In this document: piece by piece, positions 8,783-41,474 of the stretch
How positions within the stretch are numbered: position 1 is the first letter of the stretch
Layout: each line of letters starts with the position of its first letter
Source: Candidatus Thorarchaeota archaeon
GTDB taxonomy: Archaea; Asgardarchaeota; Thorarchaeia; Thorarchaeales; Thorarchaeaceae
Assembly (NCBI GenBank): GCA_020348985.1
Contig: CP070761.1
Span: forward strand, 56,449 to 97,922
DNA: 41,474 nucleotides
Direction of reading: 5' to 3'
Notes under the pieces: model-generated
What the model was told of the DNA's origin: nothing
The model's input: the letters and a program-made list of their open reading frames with translations, nothing else
Database searches by the model: none
Translations under genes and position numbers: made by a program

Positions 8783-8791
8783 AGTTCATCT

Positions 8792-8818: not shown

Positions 8819-8825
8819 TCTCATT

Positions 8826-10178: not shown

Positions 10179-10258
10179 GGTCTATCGTGGTTTCAGAATC
10201 TGAATCAGATATAAATCCGGTGCAACAATCGCGCGCTGGCCGAGCAACTGAAAGGAGT

Positions 10259-24639: not shown

Positions 24640-24668
24640 GGAAAGCCCTCCCAGATTCCGGTAAAGGT

Positions 24669-24806
24669 GCCCCGAAGTCCGAACCCATCCTTACAGACAT
24701 GTAACGCGGATACCTCTGAAGTGGGCAATGTTGAACTCGCTGGTTCACAGACCAGAGGGAAGAATACAGAATTCATTTGGGTGTGGCATTGGGTTCGGAC
24801 CGGGAC
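24669..24806 (-). ncRNA. Putative structured cis-regulatory RNA leader of the giant surface protein gene (family unknown)
   Basis: A perfect 11-bp inverted repeat (24677-24687 / 24790-24800), extended by 6 more pairs past a 2-nt bulge, encloses nested hairpins (24691-24704; 24713-24718/24753-24758; 24732-24747). Confidence 0.55.
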
Positions 24807-24817
24807 TTGCTTGTTCG

Positions 24818-25456
24818 TCAAAGTGGCATCACCATGAGCTGAGTGTATAGCACAGCCAGAAGGGCCAAGCTGACGAGTAGTTCAACTGATCCACTTCTTG
24901 GTCGTCTCTTGAGAGCTGCACCAAGCAAGGATATGTCGCCGCTTCGCAGTGAGGTGTTGAACAGGACACCCAGTGCGACATACCAGCTAAGAAGGGAAGT
25001 CGGAAACTCGAGACTGATTAGACCAGGGAGAATGAGCAAGAAAAGACCCAAGTATGTTGATAATACAACTGTGATGAACATCGACAGGATTATCACGGAA
25101 ACCCTTGGAGGTTTCTCCACGTTTAGGAACAGATTCATCTCGCCATATGTGGTCGATGTCCCGACACTATCAATGTCGATGCCCAAGCTCTTGCTTACTG
25201 CATACCTTAATCCGACATAGATGATTGAGGGAATGAAGAATAGGATTGACAGGAAAGTCATTGCTGGATTTCGCGTCCAATCCTCAAACTCTCTTTTCTG
25301 ACCACTTAGAAGGATAACCCCGCGTAGAACTGTCACGGTACCAAGGACAAGCGGAGCAATCCTCGCTGAGAACAGAAGAATCGCCAGTGCAAGAGTAATC
25401 AGATTGGTGTTCATTTGCAGGTTAGCTCCGTGAGAATCGTGTAACGATTGCATCAA
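24818..25456 (-). CDS. Hypothetical integral membrane protein (possibly a degenerate M50/DUF3267-like fold)
   Basis: About 5 TM helices. The layout resembles membrane metallopeptidases, but there is no HExxH. Confidence 0.65.
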   Translation of the reverse strand: MMQSLHDSHGANLQMNTNLITLALAILLFSARIAPLVLGTVTVLRGVILLSGQKREFEDWTRNPAMTFLSILFFIPSIIYVGLRYAVSKSLGIDIDSVGTSTTYGEMNLFLNVEKPPRVSVIILSMFITVVLSTYLGLFLLILPGLISLEFPTSLLSWYVALGVLFNTSLRSGDISLLGAALKRRPRSGSVELLVSLALLAVLYTQLMVMPL

Positions 25457-26215: not shown

Positions 26216-26321
26216 GTTCCATTGTGATGGTATAGTCTATTAAGCCCATAGACTCGTGAATTGTCTTTCATCACTCGGTGACCTTTTTAGCTCTTTGAGT
26301 GACCTGACTTCTTGGAGAAGA

Positions 26322-28010
26322 ATGGCAAAGGGAACTACCGGTCTTGTCGATCGACTGTGGAAGATGGGAGAATTCTCCAAACAGAGAGTCAGATTCCTTT
26401 CTGACCATGTAGTTCTTCAACCAGCTACAATCTCGTCACATTGGGGGCAATCTGATTCTAAATTGATGCCTAGCCACTTTGAGAAGAGATTCGGACTGAG
26501 GCCAGTAGTTGTAGAGCCAGTCAGCAAAAGAATCGAGAGTTCCTTGTTTGGCGGCAGGATTGTTGAGCAAGAGACTCGTGATCATCTGGCGAGCGCAGAC
26601 TCTCTCCTGGAACAAGTGGACTTTGTGATTCCTGATGAGGATAGCATTGATCCGCTACTAAGACCTCACAGAGAATCTCTCTCTTATGTATTCTCAAGAA
26701 TCGTCATGGGGCGGTTCCCCGAGGATTCGAGCTGGCTCTGGTATACTCCCGGACTTGACCGATTCTCGAACGCACTATTTGCATTGCAGTGGTTTTCAAG
26801 ACTTTCAGGAGTCCACCTTCCTTGGCATGATGCAGTCAACGATCACAGTCAGGGCCTATCTCATCAATCGAAAGAAGCTGTAGTCTCGATGAGACCTGAT
26901 GGAATTCCAGCAAGTGAATGGGAACCCTTTCTTTCAAAACTGCGTAGAGAAATTAGCATTCTCTGCTACAGACCCCTTGTGGCGATCTGTGAGAAACTTG
27001 GAGATGTTTCTAGTCCAAAGAGGATGACTTGGAGAGATGTGGTAGATGTCATGGGTCTGAAGAAGAGAACCGCAGGAATTGCGTTGAACAATATCGAGCT
27101 GACTCTAACAGAGAGGTTTGTAATCGGAGTCTCTAGGCTAGGGCTCAGGTATAGGTATGTTCTCTCACCCAGAGAGAGAGACCCCCCATCGATTTCCGTT
27201 TCGCGCGGTTTGTGCGAGGTAGTCTCTTTCTCCAAGGCTGTCGGCCGTAGACCTCGTCATATGTCTTTGTATGGTCACGTAGAACCAGATTCGTCTCTAG
27301 GCCCTCAGAATCTGCATTCCGGAATGCAGGAGCTAGCAGTGGACGAGGAGACAGTTTCGATGAGAATGGACTTCTTCAATTCCGACAGAAAGGAACAATG
27401 GGAGCTTCCTGTCGATGACCACACCACCGTTACGCCTGGTAGGAATCCATCGTGGATTATTCGTAAGAGTGACCCACCATCAAAGAGACCGTTCAAACCT
27501 ACTCTAAGACAGGCAGAGGTGCTTGCCGCTCTTTGGAGTCATAGAGGATCCGCAAGGTCTCTTGAGATTCTAATGAATGTACTGAGCATTCCCAGGTCTA
27601 CGGCAAAGGTTTCTGTCGACACGCTTCTCAAGAATCGGATTGTGTCAACGCTCTATCATCCAGCGATTGAGCTGTCGGCGCTTCCGGAATTGATAGTTGT
27701 GGGAGTCATTGAATCCAATCAAAGGAGAACGAATGAGTTCGTGAAATTGCTCCTAGCGAGATTTCCTTTCGTTGAACTCAAGAGAGGATCATCGACAGGA
27801 GCCTTCATCGCACACATTAGGGTTCCAGCAAATAGAGGTGTATTCTTTGTTAGTTTCCTCGAAAGCGAACTTGAAGCAATCAGTCTGCCTGAGGAGTCAG
27901 TTTTCGTGGGTCTTGTTGATAGACGAATGACGCATCTCATTGCACTTCCATTCAGACTCTACTCTCCAAGGATTCGCGAATGGCATGATCCTTGGGACGT
28001 TATCGGTTAG
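26322..28010 (+). CDS. Hypothetical protein with two HTH + ferredoxin-like (Lrp/AsnC-like) modules, possible regulator
   Basis: MTWRDVVDVMGLKKRTAGIALNNI..SRLGL and TLRQAEVLAAL..LSIPRSTAKVSVDTLLKNRIV look like helix-turn-helix units followed by alpha/beta domains. ATG 26322 after GGAGA is preferred over GTG 26256. Confidence 0.55.
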   Translation: MAKGTTGLVDRLWKMGEFSKQRVRFLSDHVVLQPATISSHWGQSDSKLMPSHFEKRFGLRPVVVEPVSKRIESSLFGGRIVEQETRDHLASADSLLEQVDFVIPDEDSIDPLLRPHRESLSYVFSRIVMGRFPEDSSWLWYTPGLDRFSNALFALQWFSRLSGVHLPWHDAVNDHSQGLSHQSKEAVVSMRPDGIPASEWEPFLSKLRREISILCYRPLVAICEKLGDVSSPKRMTWRDVVDVMGLKKRTAGIALNNIELTLTERFVIGVSRLGLRYRYVLSPRERDPPSISVSRGLCEVVSFSKAVGRRPRHMSLYGHVEPDSSLGPQNLHSGMQELAVDEETVSMRMDFFNSDRKEQWELPVDDHTTVTPGRNPSWIIRKSDPPSKRPFKPTLRQAEVLAALWSHRGSARSLEILMNVLSIPRSTAKVSVDTLLKNRIVSTLYHPAIELSALPELIVVGVIESNQRRTNEFVKLLLARFPFVELKRGSSTGAFIAHIRVPANRGVFFVSFLESELEAISLPEESVFVGLVDRRMTHLIALPFRLYSPRIREWHDPWDVIG

Positions 28011-28251
28011 ACAAGAACAGGTCCTCGTCTTCTTCAATCATCCTCGTGATCAACGCAAGTTGGTCTTGATACTCCTTCTCTTCAGGTCTCAGGTCTATCG
28101 CCCGAAGAAGAGCCTTACGCGAATCTCGAAAGGCCCCCAACTGAAAAAGCCTGTTTGCGAGGTAGTACCAAACATGTGAATTGGATGGATGTTCATCCTC
28201 GCGGCGCACTGTGGAGGATCCATCCCTGTGCTCAACTCCGTCAACTGCCAT
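28000..28251 (-). CDS. Small single-TPR protein
   Basis: HPSNSHVWYYLANRLFQLGAFRDSRKALLRAIDLRPE matches the TPR consensus. It starts 3 nt after the nuclease stop. Confidence 0.75.
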   Translation of the reverse strand: MAVDGVEHRDGSSTVRREDEHPSNSHVWYYLANRLFQLGAFRDSRKALLRAIDLRPEEKEYQDQLALITRMIEEDEDLFLSNR

Positions 28252-28254
28252 TGT

Positions 28255-29244
28255 CTACACCCATCTCTCCAGTGTTGCTTGTTCCTTACCAAAATCTTTC
28301 CAAGTCGCGACAATCTCTCTGGCTGTGCGGTTCGCATTCTCTTCTCCAATAATCGGAGAAAAGAGCTTCAGCACCCTGGGCACAATTGGAGCGTTGAGTG
28401 ACAAGTCAAGACTATCAGCTCGAATGTCTTCTGCCTCATCAAAGATCTCACGTGCGTTTAGAAACTCGTTCCTTTCTGTTTGGCTGATTCCTTTGCATTT
28501 GAGAATCGATTCGAGATTGCCAAAGCGATTTAGAAGTACAATACCTTTCCGCGGTCCAACTCCTTTCATACCAGGGTGAAAGTCGCATCCACAGATGATA
28601 GCGAGGTCCTTTAGCTGCATTAGGTTGAGACCAAGACACTTCTTCAGAGCGTCCAGTGTTACATTCTCAATCTCTCTGCTTGAGAATCGAATCGACCTCG
28701 TTACATGAGCGCTGCCGAAGAGGAGCGCGTCGGAGTCATTGGAGAGCACTGTCTCAGCTCTGCCCTGAATTACAAGTGCTGCCGCTGTCATCTCAGCCTC
28801 AGACGATGCAGTAACTGAGGGAATCCCCAATGAGACACATAGGTCTCTTATGTGAGAAGCTCTGAAGTACCATTTGAGAGCAGGGTTCTCTATCAGAGCC
28901 TCAGCAATTTCTGTGTCGAACACATCTTGTTCACGCATGAACTGAGCATATAGACTGCGTGCAAGTTGTATGAGTGAAGGATTCGTGGGTCTCTTGCGCG
29001 CTTCTGGCGGACCATCGAATATGAAGATAGGAAGTACGTTGTTCAGAAGAGAGCCGCGGATGAAGCTGTACAGAACATGAACATGTGCAGTTGGAACCCG
29101 CCCGGGGACTTGACAATGGCCATACTCAAAAGAGCTGATTCTTCTCGTCATGTAGTTCGGTGTGTCTACTGCAATTGTTTCAATTGCAGTATCCACTAGG
29201 TTGTCAGTCTGCCAGGGAACGAAACTCCAATTCTTCACTCCCAT
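28255..29244 (-). CDS. Divergent FEN1/XPG-family 5' nuclease with C-terminal PCNA-interaction (PIP) box
   Basis: MGV start, IAVD, PIFIFDG, SEAE, SNDSDALLFG, H3TH motif GCDFHPGMKGVGPRKG, and C-terminal QATLERW. Confidence 0.9.
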   Translation of the reverse strand: MGVKNWSFVPWQTDNLVDTAIETIAVDTPNYMTRRISSFEYGHCQVPGRVPTAHVHVLYSFIRGSLLNNVLPIFIFDGPPEARKRPTNPSLIQLARSLYAQFMREQDVFDTEIAEALIENPALKWYFRASHIRDLCVSLGIPSVTASSEAEMTAAALVIQGRAETVLSNDSDALLFGSAHVTRSIRFSSREIENVTLDALKKCLGLNLMQLKDLAIICGCDFHPGMKGVGPRKGIVLLNRFGNLESILKCKGISQTERNEFLNAREIFDEAEDIRADSLDLSLNAPIVPRVLKLFSPIIGEENANRTAREIVATWKDFGKEQATLERWV

Positions 29245-29254
29245 CTCTAGTCAC

Positions 29255-29983
29255 CTACAATGAACGGATAGACTTCAAGCCGCTACGCTCAAGCTTTAGG
29301 ATGATTGAGGTACCCGATGAGCTTGAGGGACTCCTCTCTATTGAGAATCGCACAATGTCAGTCGTGCTGTTTATCCAGTCAACCCTGACAACAGAATCCA
29401 CATCATGACCAAGTACGTTCCCGCCTATTGGACGTGCCTCACCTGTTCTCCAATCATGTCTGGTGTGACCAGTCAGAGCGAGGTGAATCCCTGACTCATT
29501 CACTGTGGTCCTCATTGATTCTAGTGCACTGAATAGTTCTCTTTGTCTCTTGATTCCTCCAGGCTGTCCGGATAGGTTAAGGATTCCAGCAAGGTTGTCG
29601 ACAACGACCAAGTCGATGCAATCAATCTCATGAATCTTATCGGATACACTCATGAGGTCTGAAAGATCAAGTACCTCTGCAACGTGGATCCTTCGCAACC
29701 AATCGTCAGATTCTGATGGCTTTTTGGAGTACTGTCTGATTAGTCCAGGACTGTAGTTTCGACCTGAATCCACGAACAGAGATCCACCTCCAGATCTAGC
29801 AGCGGCTACGGTAATGATATGTGCCCACGCCGTAAGGGGGGCCTTCTGCGCTCCATGAAAGAGAGAGATCTCCATAGGTGCAAGAAGAGGCCCTATCATA
29901 GAATTAAGCTGGCGAGGGACTAGTCGTATTCTCGATTCGGAAAGCGCATTTATGTTCTCAAGTGGCGTCTCCAGCGGATTCAA
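29255..29983 (-). CDS. RadA/Rad51 paralog with degenerate Walker A
   Basis: LFVDSG..YSP, LRRIHVA, DLVVVDNL, RQREL and PIGGNVLGH align with RadA in this window (PVGGHVLAH). The P-loop position reads GAQKAPLT. Confidence 0.8.
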   Translation of the reverse strand: MNPLETPLENINALSESRIRLVPRQLNSMIGPLLAPMEISLFHGAQKAPLTAWAHIITVAAARSGGGSLFVDSGRNYSPGLIRQYSKKPSESDDWLRRIHVAEVLDLSDLMSVSDKIHEIDCIDLVVVDNLAGILNLSGQPGGIKRQRELFSALESMRTTVNESGIHLALTGHTRHDWRTGEARPIGGNVLGHDVDSVVRVDWINSTTDIVRFSIERSPSSSSGTSIILKLERSGLKSIRSL

Positions 29984-30899
29984 CCCCCATACGCAGAATT
30001 GAAGGGTCCCGACTGAGGAACAGTTTCTTCAGAAACCTGCGCGTCATCACCTCAGCAGGAAGACCTGGAACACTAGTCACAGGTAGTATGGCGATGAGAC
30101 CTTGCAGACTAGGGAACAAGGTCATTCGCTCCGGTCGAATTCTCAGCAACTTGTCGACGACCTCATTATCACTGACAACCCTATATTCGTCCAGAGGAAT
30201 CCCGTGAGCCTGTTCGACAAAGGGGAGACTCAATACAATACTAGCTAGCTGAGCAGAAGCTCTTCTATAACCAGTGATTCTGGCCTCCTCTAGCACTGAT
30301 TCTACTTTTTGCACCCAGGTGGAATCATCAGCAACATTGATTGCCAACAAGTCAAAGTCTAGAAGATAAACAAGTGAGACTGGCAGGATCGGACGCTCCC
30401 TCATAACTTGCACTACTGAGTCGGTTAATGCCTTTGGCAGAATGAGTGCCTTCATGTTGTCAAACGGGAAACTTGGTATACTTGGAAGTAGTTCGGCGCC
30501 ATTCTCGAAGTTGATTGCAGTGGCGATAACATCTGATGTGTGGTTCAATAGACTAGAGAATTGTGATACGAAATCCATGACTCCAGATGGCTCCTGAATC
30601 AATCTGCAGCCAATAACAACGAGCGCACCAGAAAGTAGTGCAATGTGAATGCCAAACGGAATTACAATGATGATGACGGCAAACGTAAAGCAGGCGACTG
30701 ATGCCCATGCGATGACATTCATTATACCGTGGCTTGGACTTACCGGATTGACACTTGCTGAAACTCTGATAAGGAGAAGCGAGCAAGAAGCGAGAAGAAA
30801 GAGAGGAAGAGGGTTACCGAACCTAAACGCAAGAACAACCCCTGTCACTGAAACGACCATCTCTCCGCCAAGAAAGAGCGCGAGACCTCCGACTAGCAC
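29958..30899 (-). CDS. Hypothetical membrane protein (about 4 N-terminal TM helices + soluble domain)
   Basis: The first ~100 aa are hydrophobic, followed by an alpha/beta region. The ORF fills the gap between the two RadA paralogs. Confidence 0.7.
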   Translation of the reverse strand: MLVGGLALFLGGEMVVSVTGVVLAFRFGNPLPLFLLASCSLLLIRVSASVNPVSPSHGIMNVIAWASVACFTFAVIIIVIPFGIHIALLSGALVVIGCRLIQEPSGVMDFVSQFSSLLNHTSDVIATAINFENGAELLPSIPSFPFDNMKALILPKALTDSVVQVMRERPILPVSLVYLLDFDLLAINVADDSTWVQKVESVLEEARITGYRRASAQLASIVLSLPFVEQAHGIPLDEYRVVSDNEVVDKLLRIRPERMTLFPSLQGLIAILPVTSVPGLPAEVMTRRFLKKLFLSRDPSILRMGVESAGDAT

Positions 30900-30907
30900 A
30901 ATTCCTA

Positions 30908-31612
30908 TCAGACGGAAACATGACCCTCCGAGCAGCCTTCTTGCCTCCTGCTGTAACCCATGTCTTTGGACGTAGGATTGACTTCAACTATACCATCATT
31001 TGACAACCTTAGAGCGAGTATTGTTTCCATGGAGTCCATACTCTTGCCCGTCACTAGAATTCGAGATACTCTTCGCCCAGGTTCTCTTTCCACATGCAAG
31101 TCAAAGTCGGCAAACTTCTTGATTGAATCCAAGTGTACTGCTTGGTCCTCAACACCATTTGATCTTGATTCACTAAGAATGACTATCATGATGTTTCGCG
31201 AACGTGCGATACCTGCCAACATCGGAAGTGCCTCCTCGAAAAGGACCCTGGCCCACATGGGCTCACTACGAGGCCCCATGCCCAGAATTCGCGTTATTGT
31301 ATCGACAACAACGAGACTCGTCTCGTTCTTCAAACAAGAGGAAATTCGATCTATGGCACTTCTCGCATCACTGTGACCAAGCACAACAGAAACATTGGCT
31401 CGACTCCCTCCCGCTGAGACAACGTTTTTTCTGAGCAGTCTGATGAATGCTCCCTTCCCATCAGTGTTGACCCAAAGAACATGAGAATGGCAAGCGGCCT
31501 CAGAGGCAATGCGAATCGCCAACAAGGTCTTTCCTGATCCTGCAGAGCCCCATACGTGAACCAGACCTGAGATACCTGAAATTTGAACAATGCCACCATT
31601 ATGCAGCGTCAA
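30908..31612 (-). CDS. RadB-like RadA/Rad51 paralog (RecA-family ATPase)
   Basis: LVHVWGSAGSGKT Walker A, VLWVNTDG, SLVVVDTI Walker B. No N-terminal HhH domain. TTG 31612 after GGAGGAG is preferred over 31702. Confidence 0.85.
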   Translation of the reverse strand: MTLHNGGIVQISGISGLVHVWGSAGSGKTLLAIRIASEAACHSHVLWVNTDGKGAFIRLLRKNVVSAGGSRANVSVVLGHSDARSAIDRISSCLKNETSLVVVDTITRILGMGPRSEPMWARVLFEEALPMLAGIARSRNIMIVILSESRSNGVEDQAVHLDSIKKFADFDLHVEREPGRRVSRILVTGKSMDSMETILALRLSNDGIVEVNPTSKDMGYSRRQEGCSEGHVSV

Positions 31613-33173
31613 ACTCCTCCTCCGACTCAAATACCATCTTACCGTATCCAGTATTGTCCTCGATGTGGCTCCCTTCTTCCTGTAAAGTCCTGCTTGTATC
31701 ATCCCGCCCTGATGATCTCAACTCATTCATTAGCTCGTGATGTTCCTTCAATGAATCGTCTTCCAACGTTTCGAATGACTGGATTTGGTCTTCTGGGCGA
31801 CTCAATTCCTCATCAAAGTAAGCAAGCAGCCTCTCTGTGGATTTCCGTAGGATTAGCTCATCCACAGAATCTCTTGTATCCCTTGGGACAATTCCTGCAT
31901 TGAAGAGTGATAGATTCAGATAGCCGATGAATTCGACGAGTTGCTCAGCGGACACAGGCGACACCATGTGATTTGTTATTGCCGCATATGCAAGTGCCAG
32001 CTCGGCTTCCTCGCTCTCATCTTCCAAGCCCTCAAGGAACCTGAAGAGGTCAAGGAATCGTTCCATTCCCGGGTCACTAGAAAGAGTGTGCCTTGTTTCC
32101 ATTTCTTTAGGTATTAGATTGGATGAGACTCTAACACATTCATCCAGAATAGACGAGCAAAGTAAAACAGACCTTTCAGTTGATCCATCTCTAGCTGCTC
32201 TTGCTGCCGAGCCAATTAGCGGTGAAACCACGAAACCCAGATCATTGATTATCTTGAGAGTCCGTGCGTTCTCGAAGACGGATTTGTCTATTCTTTGTGC
32301 CTCTCCAATCTCGTCAAGAGCATTCCTCTCCAAAGCGAGCTGCTGCTTGAACTCTTGGATGACTCTTCTTGATTGAGTCAGATAGAGAGAAGAAGACGCC
32401 GCACCTAGAATGGTGGCAGCCAGTGGAAGTAACAGATTGCCAGAACCTGAAACGAAAGCGGAAACGAAGGCCAGAGTACCGATAATTGGAAGTCCTAGAA
32501 GAAGTGCCCCATACCATCCCTTCTTGACACCTCTTTCTAGAAGACGCCATTTCTCAGAGTCGACACTTTCGCTTACGTCAGGAAGGATTGATCGTGCATC
32601 ACTTCGACGAGCTAACGAAAACCCCTCGATATCGAGCACTCGCCTAGCCTCTGTCAGCCACGAAAGGTCAATTGTAGGCCTCACGTCCTTGGACACTACG
32701 TAAACGGCTCTTGTTATGTGGAGCAAAGACCTATTCCCTCCATCGCTTGACTTGAGCGTTTGAAGTGGAATCTGTCCCCAGGGAGTCATTACAGATAGCT
32801 CATCCCATCGGTCATCCAAATCGACATCCTTCAAAACAGAAGGCAAACTCCGATTTACTGTCTCGAGGACAGCGGCTTTCATCGCTATTGATGCCTTACC
32901 GAATGTTGCTTCCCTAAGGTCAAGGACGTACACAATCTCCAGATGGACGCCTCTTGCAGACGGTATTCCAGAAGTGCGAACTCCAAGAGTAATCCCGTTT
33001 GAGTAGACATGCGTCCGATGACCAGTCTTGTCTAGTATGTCACTAATGTCATATACGGCGTCTGGAGTGGCACCATCTCTCTGCGGGATTGAGTCCAACG
33101 CATCCGTTCTCGGGACATCATCAACAGAGAAGCTATCTTCATGGGTTCGGGGATAGGTCTTGTCTTCAGTCAC
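31599..33173 (-). CDS. Hypothetical membrane protein (central 2-TM hairpin, coiled coil, acidic C-terminus)
   Basis: YGALLLGLPIIGTLAFVSAFV and LLLPLAATILGAASSSLYL helices are flanked by large soluble regions. GTG 33173 overlaps the helicase stop (track start 33194). Confidence 0.75.
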   Translation of the reverse strand: MTEDKTYPRTHEDSFSVDDVPRTDALDSIPQRDGATPDAVYDISDILDKTGHRTHVYSNGITLGVRTSGIPSARGVHLEIVYVLDLREATFGKASIAMKAAVLETVNRSLPSVLKDVDLDDRWDELSVMTPWGQIPLQTLKSSDGGNRSLLHITRAVYVVSKDVRPTIDLSWLTEARRVLDIEGFSLARRSDARSILPDVSESVDSEKWRLLERGVKKGWYGALLLGLPIIGTLAFVSAFVSGSGNLLLPLAATILGAASSSLYLTQSRRVIQEFKQQLALERNALDEIGEAQRIDKSVFENARTLKIINDLGFVVSPLIGSAARAARDGSTERSVLLCSSILDECVRVSSNLIPKEMETRHTLSSDPGMERFLDLFRFLEGLEDESEEAELALAYAAITNHMVSPVSAEQLVEFIGYLNLSLFNAGIVPRDTRDSVDELILRKSTERLLAYFDEELSRPEDQIQSFETLEDDSLKEHHELMNELRSSGRDDTSRTLQEEGSHIEDNTGYGKMVFESEEEFDAA

Positions 33174-35370
33174 CCGCGACTTCCTCCTCCTCATTGTTGA
33201 GTCTCATCTGTATTCTTGAGAGTAGACTATGAGTCCGTTCAACTAGATCTTCGAGCCCACTGTGTTCTGCAACAACATAGATTGAGAAGAGAATCCAAAG
33301 GGCGTTGTCCAAGAGAGAGTAAACATCTCCAAGTGGCATTTCTAGGCTTCTCGCAATACTACCTATGGAGGACTCTGTGGTCACGAGAGAGCCTATGAGA
33401 TTCTCAAACGAACTGTCTAGATTTCTTCTGAGCTCTATGGACATCAGATGTCTGGTTAGCCATAATAGCCCAGAGTTGTCCTCCGTGAAAGGAGCAAAGG
33501 CGACAAGTTCTCTGAATGTGTTTATCCGTATGTAGAGCTTGTTGACCTTCTTCCCCAGAGAGGTTGGCCTCAATCGCCCATGAGTAGATCCTTCAACCAG
33601 ATTGAGGCGAATCAATGTTCTTGAGGGACTGGTCTCACTTAGCGCCAGAGGAATAACGAAGTTCGCTCCTTCTGGATTCTTTTGTGCAGCTATCATGCCA
33701 AGAGCGACCAAGTGATGACAAAGAATCCCTTCGTGAGAAATAGGTTCACCACAAGAGCATGTTGGGCCTTCAACCGTGCCGCGCGAAGAGCAACTTCTAG
33801 CGGAGAATCTGCATGTCACTCCTCTTCCGCCATTCTCCTCAACCATTCCGCCGATTGTTGAATCCGTGGTCTCTCTGATCTCTACCGTTCCAAGTACGCC
33901 AGCTTTAGCAGCTCGGATGGTCTCTTCCAATCCGTGACACTCAATGGCAGATTCCGCTGATATCTCTCCTAGTTCGAGTGCCCTTTGAGGAGACCTTTGG
34001 TTGCGGGAATGTGAGAACGCAAGAAAGGATTCTTCGAAAATCTCTTCTTGAATCTCCTGAATTGATGCTTCGCCCATGAAGTTTATAGCTATTAGTAATT
34101 GGTCTGTAAGTTCTGAAGGCGCGCCCATTGAACTGGTAACTGGAGAGAACCTCGGCGTCAACGTTGCGTGTCCAGTAACTTCGTCTGTCAACTCCTCGAA
34201 GTACTTCCGTTTTATTTCTCGAGATTCACCACGGCTGCCGCTAAGAATCACCCCGAAGCCTTTCTCGTCCATCCCAGGCCTACCTGCACGGCCAAGCATC
34301 TGATGTACCTGGTTTGTGGGCAGCATCTGAGTGTAGTCTGCTGGTGAACTCGTGCCTGCAATAATGACAACTCGTGCAGGTAGGTCCATGCCTGCAGATA
34401 AGGTGGTTGTCGCGCAGAGGACCCTAAGTAACCCCTTTCTGAACATATTCTCTATTAGCCTACGACTATCAGAACCTAGACCTGCATGGTGGTATGCAAC
34501 TCCGTTGTGGATCAATGGTCTAATCTCAAGAGGGAGACGCGACCCCCAGTGTTCTATTGAGTTAGCTTCGATATCTAACTCAGATCTCTCAATCTGAGTA
34601 AGCTGCCTACCAACATCGGAGCAAAGTCTCTTGGCTTCAGATTCGGCCTCACGCCTCGTGCGTGTGAAGACAATCGCCTGACCGTTTGCCTGGACAGTTG
34701 TCATGACAAGTTCTCGAATAGACTTGGTTCGATCATCAGTGGTGAGAACTCTGCACGAAAGTGGCACTGGTCGTTCGGAGGATTCTATTAGCTTGCATCC
34801 GAGCCAATCTGCCAAATCGTCTGCCGATGCTACAGTTGCTGAAAGAGCCACAATCTGAAGCTCATGCATGATGTGTTTGATTCTGAGAATGACACTCTCA
34901 AGGCGCGCGCCTCTATAGGGGTCAGCTATGTTGTGAACCTCGTCAATGACGAGAACTCCAATTTCGGAGAGGATCTGAGCTCGATGGCGAAGGAGAGAGT
35001 CTGCCCTTTCATACGTGGTGACAATGATATCAAGCTGCTCGAGTTCGGAGCCGTCTTTGTGATAGTCACCTGTTGATTGACCAACTGAGATATTCAGCTT
35101 CTCATAACGCTCCTGTAAGACATCTGCAACTTGGGAAGCAAGAGCTCTCAGGGGCACGACGAAAAGGCCTCTCTTGCCATCCAGAACCGCTCGCAAAAGC
35201 CCCATCTCTCCTACTAGCGTCTTTCCCGAGCCTGTGGGGCTGCATACGAGAATGCTCTCGCCATCCAGAAGCCCAGCCTCAATTGCATCAATCTGAACGC
35301 CTCGCGGAGTCAACCCCAAGTCTCTCAGAATATCTTTGATGTTGGTTGAGGCTGAACTTACAGTAATCAC
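33166..35370 (-). CDS. Ski2/Hel308-like SF2 helicase with inserted SWIM zinc finger
   Basis: SPTGSGKT, VVPLRAL, TGD, TTYE, DEVH, LSAT, RPVPL, HHAGL, ATTTLSAGMDLPA, QMLGRAGRPG. Also CSC-x10-CHH at aa 538-553. Confidence 0.93.
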   Translation of the reverse strand: MITVSSASTNIKDILRDLGLTPRGVQIDAIEAGLLDGESILVCSPTGSGKTLVGEMGLLRAVLDGKRGLFVVPLRALASQVADVLQERYEKLNISVGQSTGDYHKDGSELEQLDIIVTTYERADSLLRHRAQILSEIGVLVIDEVHNIADPYRGARLESVILRIKHIMHELQIVALSATVASADDLADWLGCKLIESSERPVPLSCRVLTTDDRTKSIRELVMTTVQANGQAIVFTRTRREAESEAKRLCSDVGRQLTQIERSELDIEANSIEHWGSRLPLEIRPLIHNGVAYHHAGLGSDSRRLIENMFRKGLLRVLCATTTLSAGMDLPARVVIIAGTSSPADYTQMLPTNQVHQMLGRAGRPGMDEKGFGVILSGSRGESREIKRKYFEELTDEVTGHATLTPRFSPVTSSMGAPSELTDQLLIAINFMGEASIQEIQEEIFEESFLAFSHSRNQRSPQRALELGEISAESAIECHGLEETIRAAKAGVLGTVEIRETTDSTIGGMVEENGGRGVTCRFSARSCSSRGTVEGPTCSCGEPISHEGILCHHLVALGMIAAQKNPEGANFVIPLALSETSPSRTLIRLNLVEGSTHGRLRPTSLGKKVNKLYIRINTFRELVAFAPFTEDNSGLLWLTRHLMSIELRRNLDSSFENLIGSLVTTESSIGSIARSLEMPLGDVYSLLDNALWILFSIYVVAEHSGLEDLVERTHSLLSRIQMRLNNEEEEVAGD

Positions 35371-37691
35371 AGAAAGTCACCTTTGCGAAGAGCTTGCCGC
35401 AGTGCCATTGCTCCTTTGAGAGTCATTCTGAAGTTGGCGTATTTGACACCGCTGTGAACCTCATGCCCCCTCAGAATCATGCTTGCTTCTTCAAGCTGGA
35501 TAAGCACAGTCTGCACATCCTCCTCACTATCACCGCTGGACGATATGAAACGCCTGGCAGCTTCCTCTGTAAGAGGTTCATAACGTTCCAAGAGCTGAAG
35601 TACTTGTACGGCCAGCTTCGTGTTCCGCCCAGACACAGATTCAAGGAGTGTGCGGTGCCTTCCTTTGTGGGAGTCAGTAGGTTCTCCAAGAAGCTGCGCT
35701 CTTCTTTCTGCCATCTGATCATGCGAAAGTGCTTCAAACTCGGGCGGCTTGTCCAGCGTTACTGGGTGTGCAGTCTTTGAAAGACCATCCACCAACAACG
35801 CGTTTCCTTCAGCCATCATTCTCAGATATGCTGATTCTCTTGCAGACAAACGAGCTTTGCTGTGCATCGAACCTACGACCGGGAGTCCGAGCATATCCGA
35901 AACCACTTTGATGTCATGAGAGGCTCTCAATACAAGTGATAAACAAGCTGAAAACGAGTCTGCGATTAGACCAAGATCGGAGGGGTGTCTGAGACCTACA
36001 ATCAGTGGACCTCTTTGCAGGACTTCGTTTGCCAAGTTTCGTGCCCAGAGCAGCCGTCTCTTGTGATGTGTATTGCTCACAATTAGATTCGGTGGATCAT
36101 CCATAAGAACAACAAGATCCGAGTCGGAAGCTATGCCTGCTATCTTGATAGCGGCTAGATCCCATGCCAATAGATCTAGATCTTCCGATCCTGTTTTCAG
36201 AATGATTATCGATAAGGGAATCTCTGCCAATCTGGAGAAGTGTATCGTCTGAGAGCCGTAGAATGCGTGGGCACCTGGACCTTGATGCAAAGCTCGAATC
36301 GCGTCCATTCCCTGCAAAGACGTGTAGGAAGATTCGATCTCAGGCCCCGTCTCGGATGGTTCGTTGGGACGTAGAGTGATGTCTGCTATTGTTGCTCCAG
36401 GGATCGCGACTGCTCTCCCTAGGGCGGTCACAAATTCTGGAGCTGGTGTAAGAGCAACATTTGATACTGATTCCAACGCAATCTTCAGTTTCGAAACATA
36501 CGATGCACCCGGTATACCTTCGGCATCGACAGGGTTGAGAACAAGATCCCTTCCCAAAGTGAATCCGACTGCATTCTCTTCGATCCCGGCCAGTGAGAGA
36601 CAATCCTCATGGCGACTCAGGATTAGGACCCTCTTTCGTCGATTCACGAGCTGTTTGACCAGTATTCTGTAGATGTCATATCGTTCACTTCGATGTCCAC
36701 CACAGACTAGTAGCCCATTTGAGATGTCTCTGCCAGACAGGCCAGCGACAGGACCTGGCAGGAGCGTTTCTGGATTGATGATACGACCGATTCTGAATTC
36801 GGTGTTGGCGGTCCTAATTGGTGCTACAAACTCACTTGGAACATTGCATCCCACTTCAGAAGAGAGCTCACTTGCGAGCTGAACTAGCCAATGTGAGAGA
36901 TCTCTACCTGTTGAGTAAAACGTGTGCCGGATTTCAGGAACACGATATCCGGCAATCTTCTCACCGAGCCTGCCAATTCCGGATTGAATCAGATTCTTGT
37001 CAGGGATTGCCCCCTTTATCGAAGATTGCAGTCTTCGGAGAGAATCGGCCTCACGAGTGTGTCCTAGTATGCAGGTGCTTGTCTTCCATAGACCCCCTCT
37101 GGTAGTAATGTAGGATTCAATTTCGGTGTTGGAAAGGAACTTGTTGAAGTAGTTCTCAAGAGCTTTGGTGACTATCCCTTCATCTAGAAGACGTTTGGGC
37201 CTTTCTCGCCTCATGCCAATCATTATGTAGATTCCATCTTCAGAATTGATTGCGCGCATAAGTCGACCCAGATTGCCTTTCAGCGTGGTAGATGCAGACT
37301 TCATCTGCGCCATTGAGATATGGCGAGATCCACCAGTACCCCTTGACTTCACCGATTCTCTTTGCGTCTCGAAATTCAAGTCGGCCTTTGGGACAATACA
37401 CCAATCATCGCCATAGGGTGCGAGATCCATCTTGTTCCTCTCCATTTGGGAGATTACCAGCAAGTAAACAGACAAACCCAGACAGAAGGCTGAGACAAAT
37501 GACGGTATCCAGAGAATCAGGAGAGTAAGAACACTGGATGCAAAAATGATACGCTGCCATTGAGTCCGCACCTCACGATTGTCCCAATGCAGCTTGTCGC
37601 TCTGTGTGACACTCATGGATGACTCTTGGATTTCTGCCATTGGGTCCTTTAGTGGTTTGGAACCAATTACGTGACCCTTAGTCAGCCACAA
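35367..37691 (-). CDS. Membrane-anchored HerA/VirB4-like ATPase-fold protein with degenerate P-loop and C-terminal winged helix
   Basis: TM hairpin at aa ~48-80. IGRI..PVAGL..DI..GLLVCG..ILVKQL...RVLIL..H...LNPVD follows the DUF87/HerA N-terminal pattern. Walker B-like LVVLMDD. C-terminal wHTH ending in FRMTLKG. Confidence 0.6.
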   Translation of the reverse strand: MWLTKGHVIGSKPLKDPMAEIQESSMSVTQSDKLHWDNREVRTQWQRIIFASSVLTLLILWIPSFVSAFCLGLSVYLLVISQMERNKMDLAPYGDDWCIVPKADLNFETQRESVKSRGTGGSRHISMAQMKSASTTLKGNLGRLMRAINSEDGIYIMIGMRRERPKRLLDEGIVTKALENYFNKFLSNTEIESYITTRGGLWKTSTCILGHTREADSLRRLQSSIKGAIPDKNLIQSGIGRLGEKIAGYRVPEIRHTFYSTGRDLSHWLVQLASELSSEVGCNVPSEFVAPIRTANTEFRIGRIINPETLLPGPVAGLSGRDISNGLLVCGGHRSERYDIYRILVKQLVNRRKRVLILSRHEDCLSLAGIEENAVGFTLGRDLVLNPVDAEGIPGASYVSKLKIALESVSNVALTPAPEFVTALGRAVAIPGATIADITLRPNEPSETGPEIESSYTSLQGMDAIRALHQGPGAHAFYGSQTIHFSRLAEIPLSIIILKTGSEDLDLLAWDLAAIKIAGIASDSDLVVLMDDPPNLIVSNTHHKRRLLWARNLANEVLQRGPLIVGLRHPSDLGLIADSFSACLSLVLRASHDIKVVSDMLGLPVVGSMHSKARLSARESAYLRMMAEGNALLVDGLSKTAHPVTLDKPPEFEALSHDQMAERRAQLLGEPTDSHKGRHRTLLESVSGRNTKLAVQVLQLLERYEPLTEEAARRFISSSGDSEEDVQTVLIQLEEASMILRGHEVHSGVKYANFRMTLKGAMALRQALRKGDFL

Positions 37692-37953
37692 GACCTCCTG
37701 TTCGTTTTGATAGATTTTCTACAACTCGCCTCAGGCGATGATGAGTCTCGGAATCCCCACCCCATATCAGAACTCGTCGGCCGACTATTGTGAGATCAGG
37801 TAGGCTGCACTTGCACGATTGCCCATGGGCAATAGGTTTTGGAGACCGAACAAGAAACTTCCAATCGTACCCGTGACCTGTTTGCATGGCCTGAATTAGG
37901 ATTTCAGCTAGGGAATCATCTTCAAGCTCAATCTGACTGGTGACATTCAACAT
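37678..37953 (-). CDS. Small hypothetical protein
   Basis: It fills the gap within the operon and overlaps both neighbours. ATG 37953 follows GAGGT (track start 37962). Confidence 0.5.
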   Translation of the reverse strand: MLNVTSQIELEDDSLAEILIQAMQTGHGYDWKFLVRSPKPIAHGQSCKCSLPDLTIVGRRVLIWGGDSETHHRLRRVVENLSKRTGGLVAD

Positions 37954-38536
37954 TGACCTCAATTCCTCCGTTCAGTACAATAAGCGCATCCTTCAGCCCA
38001 CCCCGATGCACAGGTGTGTGAGGGTAAGCTGCGCGCATTGCACCTTCAAGCACTTGTGCGTCCTCTGCTACCTTCTCCGTCATTCTCAGAACTCGTGACT
38101 TGCTTTGGATGATTCTTGAAGCCCGACGGGCCACCATCATTCCCACTTTCGTAGGGCGATTTCCCAGAGGCCGGGCCAAGAAGAATCGGAGCTCTCCCCC
38201 TTCCTCCTCCTCAAGTCTGGTGCTCATTGCCGCTAGAACACGACCTGCGGCATGTTTTAGATCGATTCCAATGGGGACACTCGCTATCACACATGTAGCA
38301 CATATTTCTACGCTCCAGGGTCTGAAAACTGCCGCAAGCTTCGATTCGCCATTCCATTGAACTGCCGGAGGCATGCCCAGCCGCAGTATGACATAGACAA
38401 GTAGGCAGAGAGAGAGCATGCCTCCAATTGAGATAGCAGTGTCAGTCACGGATGGAAACAGCACCAATCTTAATGACCACGCAGCTGCGACTGCGCCTAG
38501 CAAGGACAATCTATCCGGATGATCAGTATTTAGCAA
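37928..38536 (-). CDS. Hypothetical membrane protein (2 N-terminal TM helices + alpha/beta domain)
   Basis: Two hydrophobic helices, then a soluble domain. An in-frame TTG at 38536 lies 8 nt after GGAGG, immediately after the XPD stop (track start 38575). Confidence 0.7.
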   Translation of the reverse strand: MLNTDHPDRLSLLGAVAAAWSLRLVLFPSVTDTAISIGGMLSLCLLVYVILRLGMPPAVQWNGESKLAAVFRPWSVEICATCVIASVPIGIDLKHAAGRVLAAMSTRLEEEEGGELRFFLARPLGNRPTKVGMMVARRASRIIQSKSRVLRMTEKVAEDAQVLEGAMRAAYPHTPVHRGGLKDALIVLNGGIEVNVECHQSD

Positions 38537-38537
38537 T

Positions 38538-40514
38538 TCAAGCACCTCCCTTTCTGTTAGCAAGAAACAACTCAATGGCAGAAATCATCTCATGCGGCTC
38601 GGTGAAAGGCCAGATGTCGGACACAATTCCTTCGCCAAAGACATCGATGTGTCTGGTGAATCTTCGATCGAGAAGGACAACAACTCCCCAATCGTCCGGA
38701 GATCTTCTCAATCTACCAATCAGTTGAGCAACCTTCCTGATTGACGGCAAGACTGTAGAGTAGTAGTAGCCTGCACCCTTTCCATACTTCTGCTCGTACC
38801 AGTCCCGTAGAGCACCACTGAAGCTTGTAGGTGGTGTAAACGGAATTCCGACGCCTATGACCAGGTCAATGAGGGAGGATCCTTCGTGAACAAGATCTAT
38901 GCCTTCTCCGAACTTTCCAGAATAGACCCCAAAGATAGCATGTGGAGCTGACTCCACAGCAGCCTTTACGTCTTCGATTCTAGCCCGGGGCTCTTCCACA
39001 ATCAAGCTCCTATGAGAACAATCGATCCCGTATGCTAACACATCATTAAGTATCGAATAGCTTGGGAACGCAATAAGGGCGCTCTTGTTGGCGGGCACTA
39101 TAGCGAGGACTTTCGTGATTCGTTTGGCGATTTCTGACCAAAGTGCAGGCCCTCGTTCTGTGTACTTTGTTGATAACTTTCTGTCAATGAGGACAAGCCT
39201 GCTTCCACTAGGGTAGGAGCCTGCAATGCTCTCAGTCCTAGCCGTTTTGATTCCCAATAGGGACGCGTAGTGGTGTATGGGGTTCAGCGTACCAGACATT
39301 AAAAGAACAGATCTTGCTCCTCTCAGCGTTGGAGCCAGCAGTCCAGCCGCGTTCAAAGGTCTAATCATCAATCTTGCATCGTTAGGAGTGAACTCACCTG
39401 TCCACCTACGCCCAATCTCAAGTGTGCAATGCCATCCTTCATTTTGAGCTGCCACAGCTCCGGCAACAAGGAATCCGATTAGCCTTTCCAAAGGGGTCTC
39501 TGTGCTGGCCTCAACATCCGTGCTGTCAAGTGTGTCGCCCTTGGTACCAGCTAGAAACTGCAAATCCATGTCTTTTATGAATCGCGGGATGACTTCCCAA
39601 GCATGCAGTTCTAGCTCCCTTTTGCTTCTCAATCTGTCTAGCTTTATCATCAGAGTCTCCCATAGAAAAGAAACGACGTCTGGTAGCCAATCCGCACGCG
39701 TGACCCGCTTGAGCTCACTGGCGTTGTTCTTCAGCCACAAGATGTCCCTGCCAGTTATTGATGCGGTCTCAGATTCGAGAATGTGGTCAGCAAGGTTATG
39801 AGCTTCATCAACAAGAATGTCGATCTCGGGCAACGTCAAGGACAGAGTTGTCAGCAACGCATTCCGGACTCTCCAATTGAAAATGTACGAATAGGGACCA
39901 ATGATTATCCTGCTGTTCTTTGCACACCATCGCAAGACCTCGTAAGGACAGAAGTCATGTGTCGCCAAGGTTGACTCAGCATGCTCCCGCGTGACAATAT
40001 CCTCATGCAGGAGACTCTCCACGTGCGCTTTCGCTCGTGCTCTAATCTGCGGCCGGCCGTCTTCACGGGACTTCTGATAGAATCCGTAATAGTAAGTACA
40101 CTGTCCGCTTCGGACCAAGTCGTTGCAGCCCTTTGTGAAGCCAGTAACTGATGTCGCCACTATTCGCTCCTTGATTGGGCACAAGTGGATTCTAGAAATC
40201 AGGCTGGTAGCAGTTAGAGGCTGTGACCCAACTCTGTGCGCCATTACTTGTCGAATCCTTCGTATCTCCTCTTCGAACACATCGGATTGTGAGTGGGTTC
40301 TGGTTAGAATGAATAGCCTAGAGTCAGATTCTTCAATCCGAGCGGCCAGGTATCCCGATAATACAGCGATTGTCTTCCCCACTCCACATGCAGCAGAGAG
40401 GAGACCTACGGTGCCCTGTGAATAGACATCGGCTGCGAATCTGACCGCGTTGTCTTGCTGGGGCCGCGGATCGTAGGGAAACCAAGACATTGCCTCTTGA
40501 TTCCTGATTGTCAT
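38538..40514 (-). CDS. XPD/Rad3/DinG-family Fe-S cluster 5'-3' DNA helicase
   Basis: Q motif FPYDPRPQQ, Walker A CGVGKT, RTHSQ, four Fe-S cysteines (HLCP, KGC, QCTYY, FCPYE), DEAH, SGTL, FPSY, EGID, GIPF, QLIGRLRR..D.G..VLLDRRF. ATG 40514 forms an ATGA overlap with the upstream stop. Confidence 0.93.
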   Translation of the reverse strand: MTIRNQEAMSWFPYDPRPQQDNAVRFAADVYSQGTVGLLSAACGVGKTIAVLSGYLAARIEESDSRLFILTRTHSQSDVFEEEIRRIRQVMAHRVGSQPLTATSLISRIHLCPIKERIVATSVTGFTKGCNDLVRSGQCTYYYGFYQKSREDGRPQIRARAKAHVESLLHEDIVTREHAESTLATHDFCPYEVLRWCAKNSRIIIGPYSYIFNWRVRNALLTTLSLTLPEIDILVDEAHNLADHILESETASITGRDILWLKNNASELKRVTRADWLPDVVSFLWETLMIKLDRLRSKRELELHAWEVIPRFIKDMDLQFLAGTKGDTLDSTDVEASTETPLERLIGFLVAGAVAAQNEGWHCTLEIGRRWTGEFTPNDARLMIRPLNAAGLLAPTLRGARSVLLMSGTLNPIHHYASLLGIKTARTESIAGSYPSGSRLVLIDRKLSTKYTERGPALWSEIAKRITKVLAIVPANKSALIAFPSYSILNDVLAYGIDCSHRSLIVEEPRARIEDVKAAVESAPHAIFGVYSGKFGEGIDLVHEGSSLIDLVIGVGIPFTPPTSFSGALRDWYEQKYGKGAGYYYSTVLPSIRKVAQLIGRLRRSPDDWGVVVLLDRRFTRHIDVFGEGIVSDIWPFTEPHEMISAIELFLANRKGGA

Positions 40515-41131
40515 TCGGCACCCTCCACACGTAGGCATGACTCGGCTGTATATATTCTGAAACGAATTGAGAAGTAACGGTTCAGAAGGTAGTAGTAGCG
40601 ATCCAAGTGTTCCCGCGAATCGAAGTGCTTTACAGAGCAGGCCATACGTTCGACTATTTCAGGACTAAACCCTTTCTGTCGAGCCGCTCTCCAGAACCAC
40701 TCCTCAACTTCCCGCATCGTGGATATGCAATGCGCCACGGTCGACTCAACAATCGAAATGAGAAACTCTAATGCATCCTTCGTTTTGTTAGGGATTGATG
40801 AAACTCGTTCGCCGGTTGGAATATAGGCGACGATGCCTTCGTTACTGTTCAGGTCTATCTCCACAGGGACACCCTTGCCTCCACGAAGGGTTTCCAGTAA
40901 TGAGAGGACACGGGGTATCTGGTGCAGAACCGGCTTGGATTTGTCGGAATGTCGCCAACCAATCCGAGTCACTACGAAGAGTGGCGGATCGCTATCAATG
41001 TTGACATCGATTTGCACAATCCTGATTCGGTGAGCAGTCTCTCTAAGAATGAGGTTGACGAGGTTGAGGACTGATTCCTGATGTGTCCCGCGTCTGAAGA
41101 CTTGAGTGCGTCCTCCGGCTTCAATGCTCAT
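40511..41131 (-). CDS. Hypothetical soluble protein
   Basis: 206-aa ORF with ATGA overlaps at both ends. No motif recognised. Confidence 0.75.
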   Translation of the reverse strand: MSIEAGGRTQVFRRGTHQESVLNLVNLILRETAHRIRIVQIDVNIDSDPPLFVVTRIGWRHSDKSKPVLHQIPRVLSLLETLRGGKGVPVEIDLNSNEGIVAYIPTGERVSSIPNKTKDALEFLISIVESTVAHCISTMREVEEWFWRAARQKGFSPEIVERMACSVKHFDSREHLDRYYYLLNRYFSIRFRIYTAESCLRVEGAE

Positions 41132-41472
41132 GAGTGCTCATCCTCATGCCCAATTGTAACTCCGTCTTCAATCTCGATTACTGCGCCAGAATCGATAAGG
41201 TCATACAAGACTCGGCTTGTTTTGGAAAGCGTTATCCCTGCTTCCGCGGCTTCCTGAATCACCTTGACTATTGCCACTGGCCTGCCGCGATTCAAGTCTA
41301 CTAGCGCGTCTATGATATTGATGATGCGACGTCTGACCCCCAGGCCTCTCTGTGGTTTCTTGCTCTTGCTCCGGCTTTTTGATTCAAGCGCCAGCTTTCT
41401 TACATATTCCTCTGCTTCCAGAACCGTTGACGCATAGACAATTTCGTTTTCACTTGCCTGCAAAGTCCCGCA
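41128..41472 (-). CDS. C-terminal fragment of a winged-helix-terminated protein, MCM C-terminus-like (5' end outside the window)
   Basis: The frame is open to the window edge. IINIIDAL...VAIVKVIQEAAEAGI...SRVLYDLIDSGAVIEIEDG resembles the archaeal MCM C-terminal winged helix. Confidence 0.5.
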   Translation of the reverse strand, partial: CGTLQASENEIVYASTVLEAEEYVRKLALESKSRSKSKKPQRGLGVRRRIINIIDALVDLNRGRPVAIVKVIQEAAEAGITLSKTSRVLYDLIDSGAVIEIEDGVTIGHEDEHS

Positions 41473-41474
41473 TA

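Follow-up and report, generated by a model that had tools for sequence, protein, structure and literature searches.

The Ced system of the Sulfolobales and the Ted system of the Thermoproteales are domesticated type IV secretion systems, chromosomally encoded and vertically inherited, which comprise a membrane protein with a VirB4/HerA fold and small proteins with two transmembrane helices (PMC9905601; PMC11868833). CedB and TedB have been characterized as AAA+-type ATPases and seem to drive translocation, and the Ted DNA-import loci co-localize with HerA and Rad50 (PMC9905601). Here we analyze an operon presenting the same general features in a Candidatus Thorarchaeota archaeon, located in a stretch of 41,474 nucleotides (NCBI GenBank assembly GCA_020348985.1, contig CP070761.1, positions 56,449 to 97,922 of the forward strand; hereafter, the window). 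The original prediction, a model's reading of the bare sequence, had proposed that the operon encodes a dedicated membrane-tethered machine for DNA import or exchange and recombination in an Asgard archaeon. The host was called correctly, and comparative genomics supports a dedicated membrane-tethered recombination machine. The import or exchange of DNA did not gain the same support and is treated here as plausible, and the MCM component assigned to the toolkit proved to be wrong. We tentatively favor the view that the operon encodes one vertically inherited, dedicated membrane-anchored recombination machine, the DNA substrate of which would most likely come from a neighboring cell.

Several features set the Thorarchaeota operon apart from Ced and Ted. 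CedB and TedB are ATPases, whereas the P-loop is missing from the VirB4/HerA-fold protein of the operon (g06) and from all its family; the structural model of g06 hence reproduces the expected fold, but not a competent ATPase. Ced and Ted also encompass VirB6-like proteins with 6-7 transmembrane helices (CedA/TedA) and VirB2-like pilins (CedA1/TedC), none of which was recognized here. Conversely, the Ced/Ted operons do not contain the helicases, flap nuclease and RadA paralogs present in the Thorarchaeota operon. Because no active ATPase, pilin or VirB6-like protein was found, the operon is not considered a member of the Ced/Ted group. Sulfolobales cells make contact through a separate surface structure, the Ups pili; here, a giant surface protein encoded downstream might play that role.

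Other recombination systems offer partial parallels. The archaeal HerA-NurA-Mre11-Rad50 operon likewise combines a HerA-fold ring with a nuclease and recombination proteins, and is presumed to supply 3' single-stranded DNA to RadA; the Thorarchaeota ring, in contrast, would be inactive and membrane-anchored, with a FEN1-type nuclease and with XPD- and Hel308-type helicases as motors. As an analogy only, RecBCD/AddAB also couples two helicases of opposite polarity and a nuclease to recombinase loading, but RecBCD draws on unrelated protein families and has neither membrane anchoring nor dedicated recombinase paralogs. Similarly to metazoan HELQ with its RAD51 paralog complexes, the operon links a Hel308-family helicase to RadA-family paralogs, one of them ATPase-dead. 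In Shu/SWS1, a SWIM-type zinc motif is similarly present in the same system as RAD51/RadA paralogs, but the SWIM of Shu2/SWS1 resides in a separate protein, whereas here it is an insertion inside the helicase and its association with the paralogs is by gene neighborhood alone. A second RadA clade was reported in 2025 in Heimdall-, Njord-, Gerd- and, less robustly, Lokiarchaea, with no operon context and in a text from which the words "Thor" and "operon" are absent (PMC12722695). Relatives of the Thorarchaeota genome analyzed here also carry two RadA-type recombinases per genome, one of them encoded as the first enzyme of the operon. Full-text literature searches returned no account of the operon, a SWIM-bearing Hel308 or VirB4-like pseudo-ATPases from Asgard archaea.

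In the window, the operon encompasses 13 open reading frames (ORFs) on the minus strand, extending from 41474 down to 28000, with junctions that overlap by 4-38 nt or leave gaps of 3-10 nt. ORF calls over 28000-41474 thus agree with the tight same-strand packing described originally. With the longest start of g09, the overlap between g08 and g09 reaches 104 nt, but this start is probably too far upstream. The proposed interleaving of enzymes with membrane proteins was substantiated by hydropathy analysis, which identified transmembrane hairpins in g04, g06, g08 (mid-protein) and g10, with two helices in each of the first three, approximately four in g10, and very short linking loops. No match in Pfam, NCBIfam or PADLOC was obtained for g01, g02, g04, g05, g06, g08 or g10.

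Pfam and NCBIfam scores upheld the XPD-family, Hel308-like and FEN1-family assignments among the remaining genes and described the two predicted RadA paralogs as RadB-like. Separate housekeeping fen1, hel308 and xpd genes were looked for and all were present, defining the operon enzymes as divergent extra copies. The XPD/Rad3-family helicase paralog g03 (38538-40538, minus strand) presents DEAD_2 (78 bits) and Helicase_C_2 (83 bits) domains over Pfam cut-offs, and its best PDB matches are archaeal XPD structures. The Walker A motif, the DEAH box and the four cysteines expected of an FeS cluster are kept in 13 sequences, completing the XPD/Rad3 feature set. Its TIGR00604 score (174 bits) falls below the cut-off of 247, while the housekeeping XPD encoded elsewhere scores 337 bits, over the cut-off. 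Another RadB-like gene lies less than 1 kb after this housekeeping XPD (genome 2748094-2751399), an adjacency outside the operon that may hint at the origin of the operon.

The Hel308/Ski2-like helicase paralog g07 (33166-35370, minus strand) matches Pfam DEAD and Helicase_C over cut-offs and shows only a weak match to Hel308 domain 4. Hel308 models score between 282 and 349 bits (PRK02362, 349), far below their equivalog cut-offs of 887-1216, indicating that g07 is a member of the Hel308 family and not the housekeeping ortholog; the housekeeping Hel308 encoded elsewhere in the genome scores 619 bits versus 295 for g07. Motifs I, II and VI are invariant in the family alignment, in line with the Hel308/Hjm feature set, and the PDB matches comprise Hjm/Hel308 structures (349-389 bits) and Brr2 cassettes. 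The protein also contains a SWIM-type insertion of ~125 residues (33631-34008) with a CxC...CxH zinc motif, the residues of which (C538, C540, C551 and H553) are invariant in the alignment, as expected of a SWIM motif. This insertion is not present in the canonical Hel308 of the same genome. Between genera, the Hel308 paralog is 51-54% identical and canonical Hel308 57-67%, and the ranking of genomes is nearly the same for both proteins, with only the two lowest (G011 and G021) changing places. The divergence of the paralog therefore tracks that of canonical Hel308, which indicates vertical descent under purifying selection.

Two core-only RecA-fold proteins, g09 (30908-31702, minus strand; its true start probably lies downstream of 31702) and g11 (29255-29983, minus strand), are RecA-fold relatives with weak RadB matches (TIGR02237, 44 and 41 bits against a cut-off of 172). 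The former keeps a GxxGSGKT Walker A motif, whereas the latter has lost it (HGxERAPLT). The canonical radA gene lies away from the operon, as had been noted, at 7838-8782 of the window (468 bits). According to its scores, g12 (28255-29244, minus strand) is a divergent FEN1 paralog: it presents an XPG_I domain (63 bits in Pfam) and scores ~110 bits with fen_arch against a cut-off of 352, versus 421 and 406 bits, over the equivalog cut-off, for two housekeeping FEN1 copies (genome 1811647-1812666 and 1279855-1280877). The genome hence harbors three FEN1-family genes. Acidic active-site residues and a C-terminal Q-x-T-L-E-x-W/F tail are kept across the g12 family; canonical FEN1 copies end in QSSLSDFF, and the g12 tail resembles a PCNA-interaction motif. 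Canonical NurA and HerA are also encoded elsewhere in the genome.

The VirB4/HerA-fold member of the operon is g06 (35367-37691, minus strand), a protein of 774 residues that had been described as a membrane-anchored HerA/VirB4-like protein. Both the anchor and the fold stood up to analysis, but the P-loop is missing. In the AlphaFold2 model (pLDDT 74.8), a transmembrane hairpin at the N-terminus is followed by an N-domain, a RecA-like core and, at the C-terminus, a winged helix. The best Foldseek match of the model, with E 3.6e-13 and 770 aligned columns that include the N-domain, is TrwK/VirB4 from the type IV secretion system of R388; other matches include VirB4 of T. pseudethanolicus (TM-score 0.67), HerA, TrwB and the C-domain of DndH, and the look-alikes returned by the Atlas search belong to DUF87/TrwB-type clusters. 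In all 14 Thorarchaeota sequences the P-loop is replaced by CGGxxxER (36678-36716, minus strand), with an invariant arginine at the lysine position, and no conserved catalytic glutamate follows Walker B. The family is small: a search of 1.84 billion cluster representatives gave 202 matches at E<=1e-3, and GK[ST] is missing in 20 of the 20 distant members examined. The loss of the P-loop in all these distant members indicates that the family of g06 is old and made up of inactivated homologs of ring ATPases. In a metagenome contig representing a different system (L105:5058-14240), three tandem VirB4/HerA-like paralogs of 850, 873 and 831 residues follow small membrane proteins; only the middle one presents a Walker A motif (GGTNMGKS), such that members of the dead family flank an active one.

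Most of the remaining products of the operon have no recognizable family. The small winged-helix protein g01 (41128-41474, minus strand) has a frame open to the contig end and is nearly complete with respect to its orthologs of 83-142 residues. It had been read as the C-terminus of an MCM-like protein, an assignment that did not hold: in relatives it is a stand-alone winged-helix protein of ~100-140 residues, and the gene upstream encodes a RadA paralog, not an MCM. No MCM-like gene linked to the operon was found in relatives. The 206-residue g02 (40511-41131, minus strand), which overlaps the start of g03, is the best conserved of the unassigned proteins (57% mean column identity), but did not match any Pfam, PADLOC, NCBIfam or PDB sequence, and the Atlas search was uninformative. 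With 215 residues, g04 (37928-38575, minus strand) presents an N-terminal transmembrane hairpin and a conserved cytoplasmic domain, and its profile returned no meaningful match against PDB sequences. The possibility that g04 is a split-off VirB4 N-domain, similar to CedD, was rejected on the basis of an hhalign probability of 0.45% against g06. A hidden Markov model (HMM) of the soluble 94-residue g05 (37678-37962, minus strand) found this protein at the equivalent position in almost every related locus.

The two-helix protein predicted to follow the Hel308 paralog, g08 (31599-33194, minus strand), does contain a transmembrane hairpin (residues 230-272), but the protein is 531 residues long and the hairpin is flanked by large cytoplasmic domains: an alpha/beta N-domain and a helical C-domain with an acidic tail. 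Its AlphaFold2 model (pLDDT 78.8) yielded no Foldseek match in the PDB at E<1e-3, Atlas TM-scores by query of at most 0.25, and VIA matches only at the level of helical bundles (Z 8-10), with HEPN-like and coiled-coil rows; the profile search against PDB sequences returned nothing meaningful. A few weak rows with a nucleotidyltransferase fold (NF90, PAP, OAS and LinB) are recorded as a lead only. The least conserved protein of the operon is the 313-residue g10 (29958-30899, minus strand), in which approximately four N-terminal transmembrane helices are combined with a cytoplasmic domain. It had no meaningful profile match among PDB sequences, and the Atlas search was again uninformative. Finally, g13 (28000-28251, minus strand) is an 83-residue tetratricopeptide repeat (TPR) ORF located 3 nt past g12. 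The original claim of a TPR protein in the operon holds to the extent that the ORF is present, with TPR matches scoring below Pfam cut-offs, but no tblastn match to it was found in 16 related loci.

Gene order is conserved across relatives. Using tblastn, genes g01-g12 were found to be colinear with the window in 13 genomes of 12 genera, at 21-62% identity. Ortholog HMMs were run over 51 loci on public contigs (50 of Thorarchaeaceae type and L078, a contig of the sister-family genome G037), and none of the 51 departs from this order within the reach of its contig, with about 24 presenting the full set. A lack of conserved gene order had been named beforehand as grounds for abandoning the idea of a dedicated system, as had enzymes that were the only housekeeping copies of the genome and membrane genes that failed to accompany the enzymes. 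All three outcomes favor the original prediction: the order proved to be fixed in both the 13 genomes and the public contigs, the enzymes are divergent extra copies, and the membrane genes are kept together with the enzymes. Sampling of 36 genomes of the family returned g06 in 27; in a larger sample, 53 of 85 were positive. The genes g02, g06 and g08 are jointly missing from three genomes with a completeness of 91-93%, and two further apparent absences correspond to assembly breaks.

A few loci deviate from this pattern. In L038 (JBHLOX010000044.1), g01-g07 are directly followed by g11-g12, with no matches to g08-g10, and this locus may represent a natural deletion variant without two of the membrane proteins and the active RadB-like gene. 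In L016 (G034), the XPD and Hel308 paralogs are each detected by tblastn as two pieces in different frames (3141-5103 and 8327-10505), which are interpreted as frameshifts or long-read assembly errors. An apparent fusion of g04, g05 and g06 in G006 was ruled out, since a stop codon separates them.

The operon also extends beyond the window. The metagenome-assembled genome (MAG) comprises 132 contigs joined by 131 runs of 100 N (3.16 Mb), and the window corresponds to exactly one whole contig. The end of the window adjoins an N spacer, and the frame of g01 is therefore truly open at the edge. In relatives, a full-length RadA/Rad51-type recombinase paralog of 354-391 residues is encoded directly upstream of g01 on the same strand. 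This paralog matches Pfam Rad51 (179 bits) and the helix-hairpin-helix domain HHH_5, scores 198 bits to P. furiosus RadA and is 34-40% identical to canonical RadA; the same relatives also carry a canonical RadA that is 89-95% identical to that of the window. In about 30 loci, g01 is preceded by u251, u155 and the RadA paralog, where u251 and u155 are coupled genes of no recognized family. In the genome under study, a gene fragment at the very end of another contig (genome 1252639-1253229, minus strand) encodes the N-terminal 197 residues of u251 and reads outward, indicating that the operon was split by an assembly break. This contig should hence join the right end of the window, with ~1.7 kb missing that would include u155 and the RadA paralog. 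Judging from the arrangement in relatives, the operon is a 15-gene unit, of which the window holds genes 4-15.

A simpler version of the operon was detected in several other Asgard families, which contain g06 homologs of ~530-570 or ~1250-1400 residues with variable frequency (e.g. six of six genomes in one family and 47 of 135 in another). In seven of the eight loci inspected, the g06 homolog lies beside a Hel308 paralog (G037, G043, G166, G177, G275 and L107) and/or a gene of the RadA family (G349); in the remaining locus (L105), only the tandem VirB4/HerA-like paralogs are present. All six linked Hel308 paralogs of these lineages carry an insertion of ~125 residues with the CxC...CxH motif. 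A FEN1-like gene is also present in G177 and, separately, in G042, and in two other Asgard families the RadA of the cluster scores better as canonical RadA. The recurrence of this core outside the Thorarchaeaceae makes the Thorarchaeota operon the most elaborate form of an Asgard-wide module. In L107 (5449-7485) and L113 (4040-6181), an HHH_5-domain protein of ~680 residues and two small proteins precede a g06 homolog of ~1270 residues, which points to a different partner set in that family.

Downstream of g12, synteny comprises three further genes, the order and orientation of which are unchanged in four other genera. The first one encodes a convergent 584-residue protein (26256-28010, plus strand) without a Pfam match, homologs of which are found directly past g12 in 10 loci of the first set and in four further genomes. 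The second encodes a 212-residue protein with five transmembrane helices by hydropathy (24818-25456, minus strand); it is 37-51% identical in Thorarchaeota genomes and 32% in L021, and in the sister family its homolog is located directly after g08. The third encodes a giant surface protein of 2598 residues (16843-24639, minus strand), for which Pfam and hydropathy analyses define a signal peptide, a prenyltransferase-like toroid, Ig-like repeats and a C-terminal transmembrane anchor. Full-length homologs, 36-42% identical, occupy the same position and strand in G005, G031, G021 and G011. Synteny ends past the surface protein: none of the window genes beyond it is syntenic. A 178-nt gap (24640-24817) lies upstream of the giant surface gene.

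Overall, these results define a family-wide 15-gene operon that would constitute a second, dedicated recombination set (a RadA paralog, an active/inactive RadB-like pair, a SWIM-Hel308, an XPD and a FEN1), firmly tied to membrane proteins and to a giant protein of the cell surface, and with a core that recurs across the Asgard phylum. In the mechanism proposed here, the dead VirB4/HerA-like g06 would assemble with g04, g08 and g10 into a ring or platform on the inner side of the membrane. DNA arriving at this platform would be unwound by two helicases of opposite polarity, XPD-type (5'-3') and SWIM-Hel308-type (3'-5'), and the FEN1 paralog would cut the 5' strand or flaps. The 3' strand could then be passed to the RadA paralog of the operon, with the active/inactive RadB-like pair serving as mediators. 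The DNA would most likely originate in a neighboring cell, which the giant surface protein would keep in place, and the overall process would resemble a Ced/Ted-like exchange coupled directly to recombination. A source in another cell is favored because the platform fold is that of the conjugation and Ced/Ted ATPases, because the giant surface protein is the only other conserved neighbor, and because Ted import loci adjoin recombination genes (PMC9905601). The surface protein is the one new item that favors cell-cell exchange.

A more specific form of this proposal envisages an Asgard-specific, sex-like exchange of chromosomal DNA. A giant adhesin would join the cells, a dead-ring conduit or dock would receive the DNA, and a specialized recombinase with HELQ-like, XPD-like, FEN1/EXO1-like and RAD51-paralog-like helpers would integrate it, a simpler core being present across the phylum. 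Under such a scenario a Rad51/Dmc1-like division of labor would already exist in the Asgard archaea, but we regard this as a long shot. If DNA exchange is confirmed, the operon would represent a new kind of gene-transfer machine, with bearing on the origin of specialized recombination and, ultimately, of sex; a membrane-sited repair or defense complex would still constitute a new architecture. A role for the operon would also provide a function for a whole family of inactivated VirB4/HerA-type proteins, and its parts are defined well enough for expression and testing.

Several observations weigh against exchange between cells. The Walker A lysine is missing family-wide, and g06 therefore cannot be a translocation motor. 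Hydropathy and profile analyses did not recognize in the operon any polytopic VirB6/CedA-like channel or any sizeable extracytoplasmic domain; the largest numbers of transmembrane helices are ~4 in the operon (g10) and 5 in the neighboring 212-residue protein, versus 6-7 in VirB6, CedA and TedA. Likewise, no small ORF with two transmembrane helices was recognized as a VirB2-like pilin, although pilins are too divergent for a profile test. About one third of the family genomes have no match to g06 (53 of 85 are positive), in part due to MAG incompleteness, and the system is probably dispensable. Lastly, the putative PCNA-type tail of g12 fits chromosomal replication or repair at least equally well.

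This last point bears on a rather unlikely alternative, in which the complex would use PCNA in the membrane-tethered maintenance of the cell's own, possibly polyploid, chromosome, through repair, fork restart, the processing of intermediates or the resolution of linked chromosomes, with the surface protein as a mere neighbor. Besides the family-wide conservation of the PCNA-interaction-like tail of g12, such a role would be consistent with the FtsK-like layout of g06 (transmembrane anchor, RecA-like core and C-terminal winged helix), with vertical inheritance in an ordinary setting beside PheRS and RadA on the same contig, with an evolutionary rate close to that of housekeeping Hel308 and with the canonical-scoring RadA in the cluster of two other Asgard families. 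The genome, however, already contains housekeeping RadA, Hel308, XPD, two FEN1, NurA and HerA, several relatives of fair completeness lack the operon, and the conserved linkage to a surface protein of some 2600 residues would be left unexplained.

Defense against mobile elements is a still weaker candidate, which we deem improbable. Under this explanation, a membrane helicase-nuclease complex would recognize incoming DNA of viruses or plasmids and destroy or neutralize it, much like HerA-partnered or Hachiman-type systems. The fold matches of g06 do include nuclease-partnered HerA-fold systems (SIR2-HerA, DUF4297-HerA, TdpAB and DndH), presence in the family is patchy, and PADLOC matched g07 to HamB and g03 to type IV DinG models. 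Nevertheless, over g01-g10 PADLOC did not identify a defense system, its matches being to generic helicase cores plus two marginal ones for g09 (E ~0.004). Stable vertical inheritance, manifest in a gene order and chromosomal position maintained family-wide, an ordinary context without islands or mobile elements, a divergence that tracks housekeeping Hel308 and the presence of a recombinase all make defense less likely. Known defense systems do not feature a dedicated full-length recombinase, a pair of RadB-like mediators or a PCNA-type tail, and the operon does not contain any toxin or abortive-infection effector. The notion that the locus is no machine at all, but a conserved cluster of independent repair paralogs and unrelated membrane proteins that are merely co-transcribed, draws on the absence of a recognizable family for three of the four membrane proteins (g04, g08 and g10) and is highly improbable in view of the start/stop overlaps at most junctions, the interleaved order that more than 12 genera share at protein identities of 25-55%, the joint absence of members and the recurrence of the SWIM-Hel308/g06-like/RadA-family core in distant Asgard families.

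The concatenated structure of the assembly conditions the interpretation of the genomic surroundings. Since contigs are joined by spacers, the FtsX/ABC transporter, DUF166 and asparaginase genes found past the spacer are not real neighbors of the operon, and distances from the operon to the Hel308, HerA and NurA genes on other contigs are meaningless. Similarly, N gaps occur in the examined stretch of G385, although it is presented as one contig. Pfam scans of the larger ORFs of the window, several smaller ORFs falling outside the scan, revealed no hallmark of mobile elements, in agreement with the original observation that no such gene is visible. The remainder of the contig is ordinary chromosome, encoding PheRS alpha and beta, a geranylgeranyl reductase, ABC transporters and the canonical RadA.

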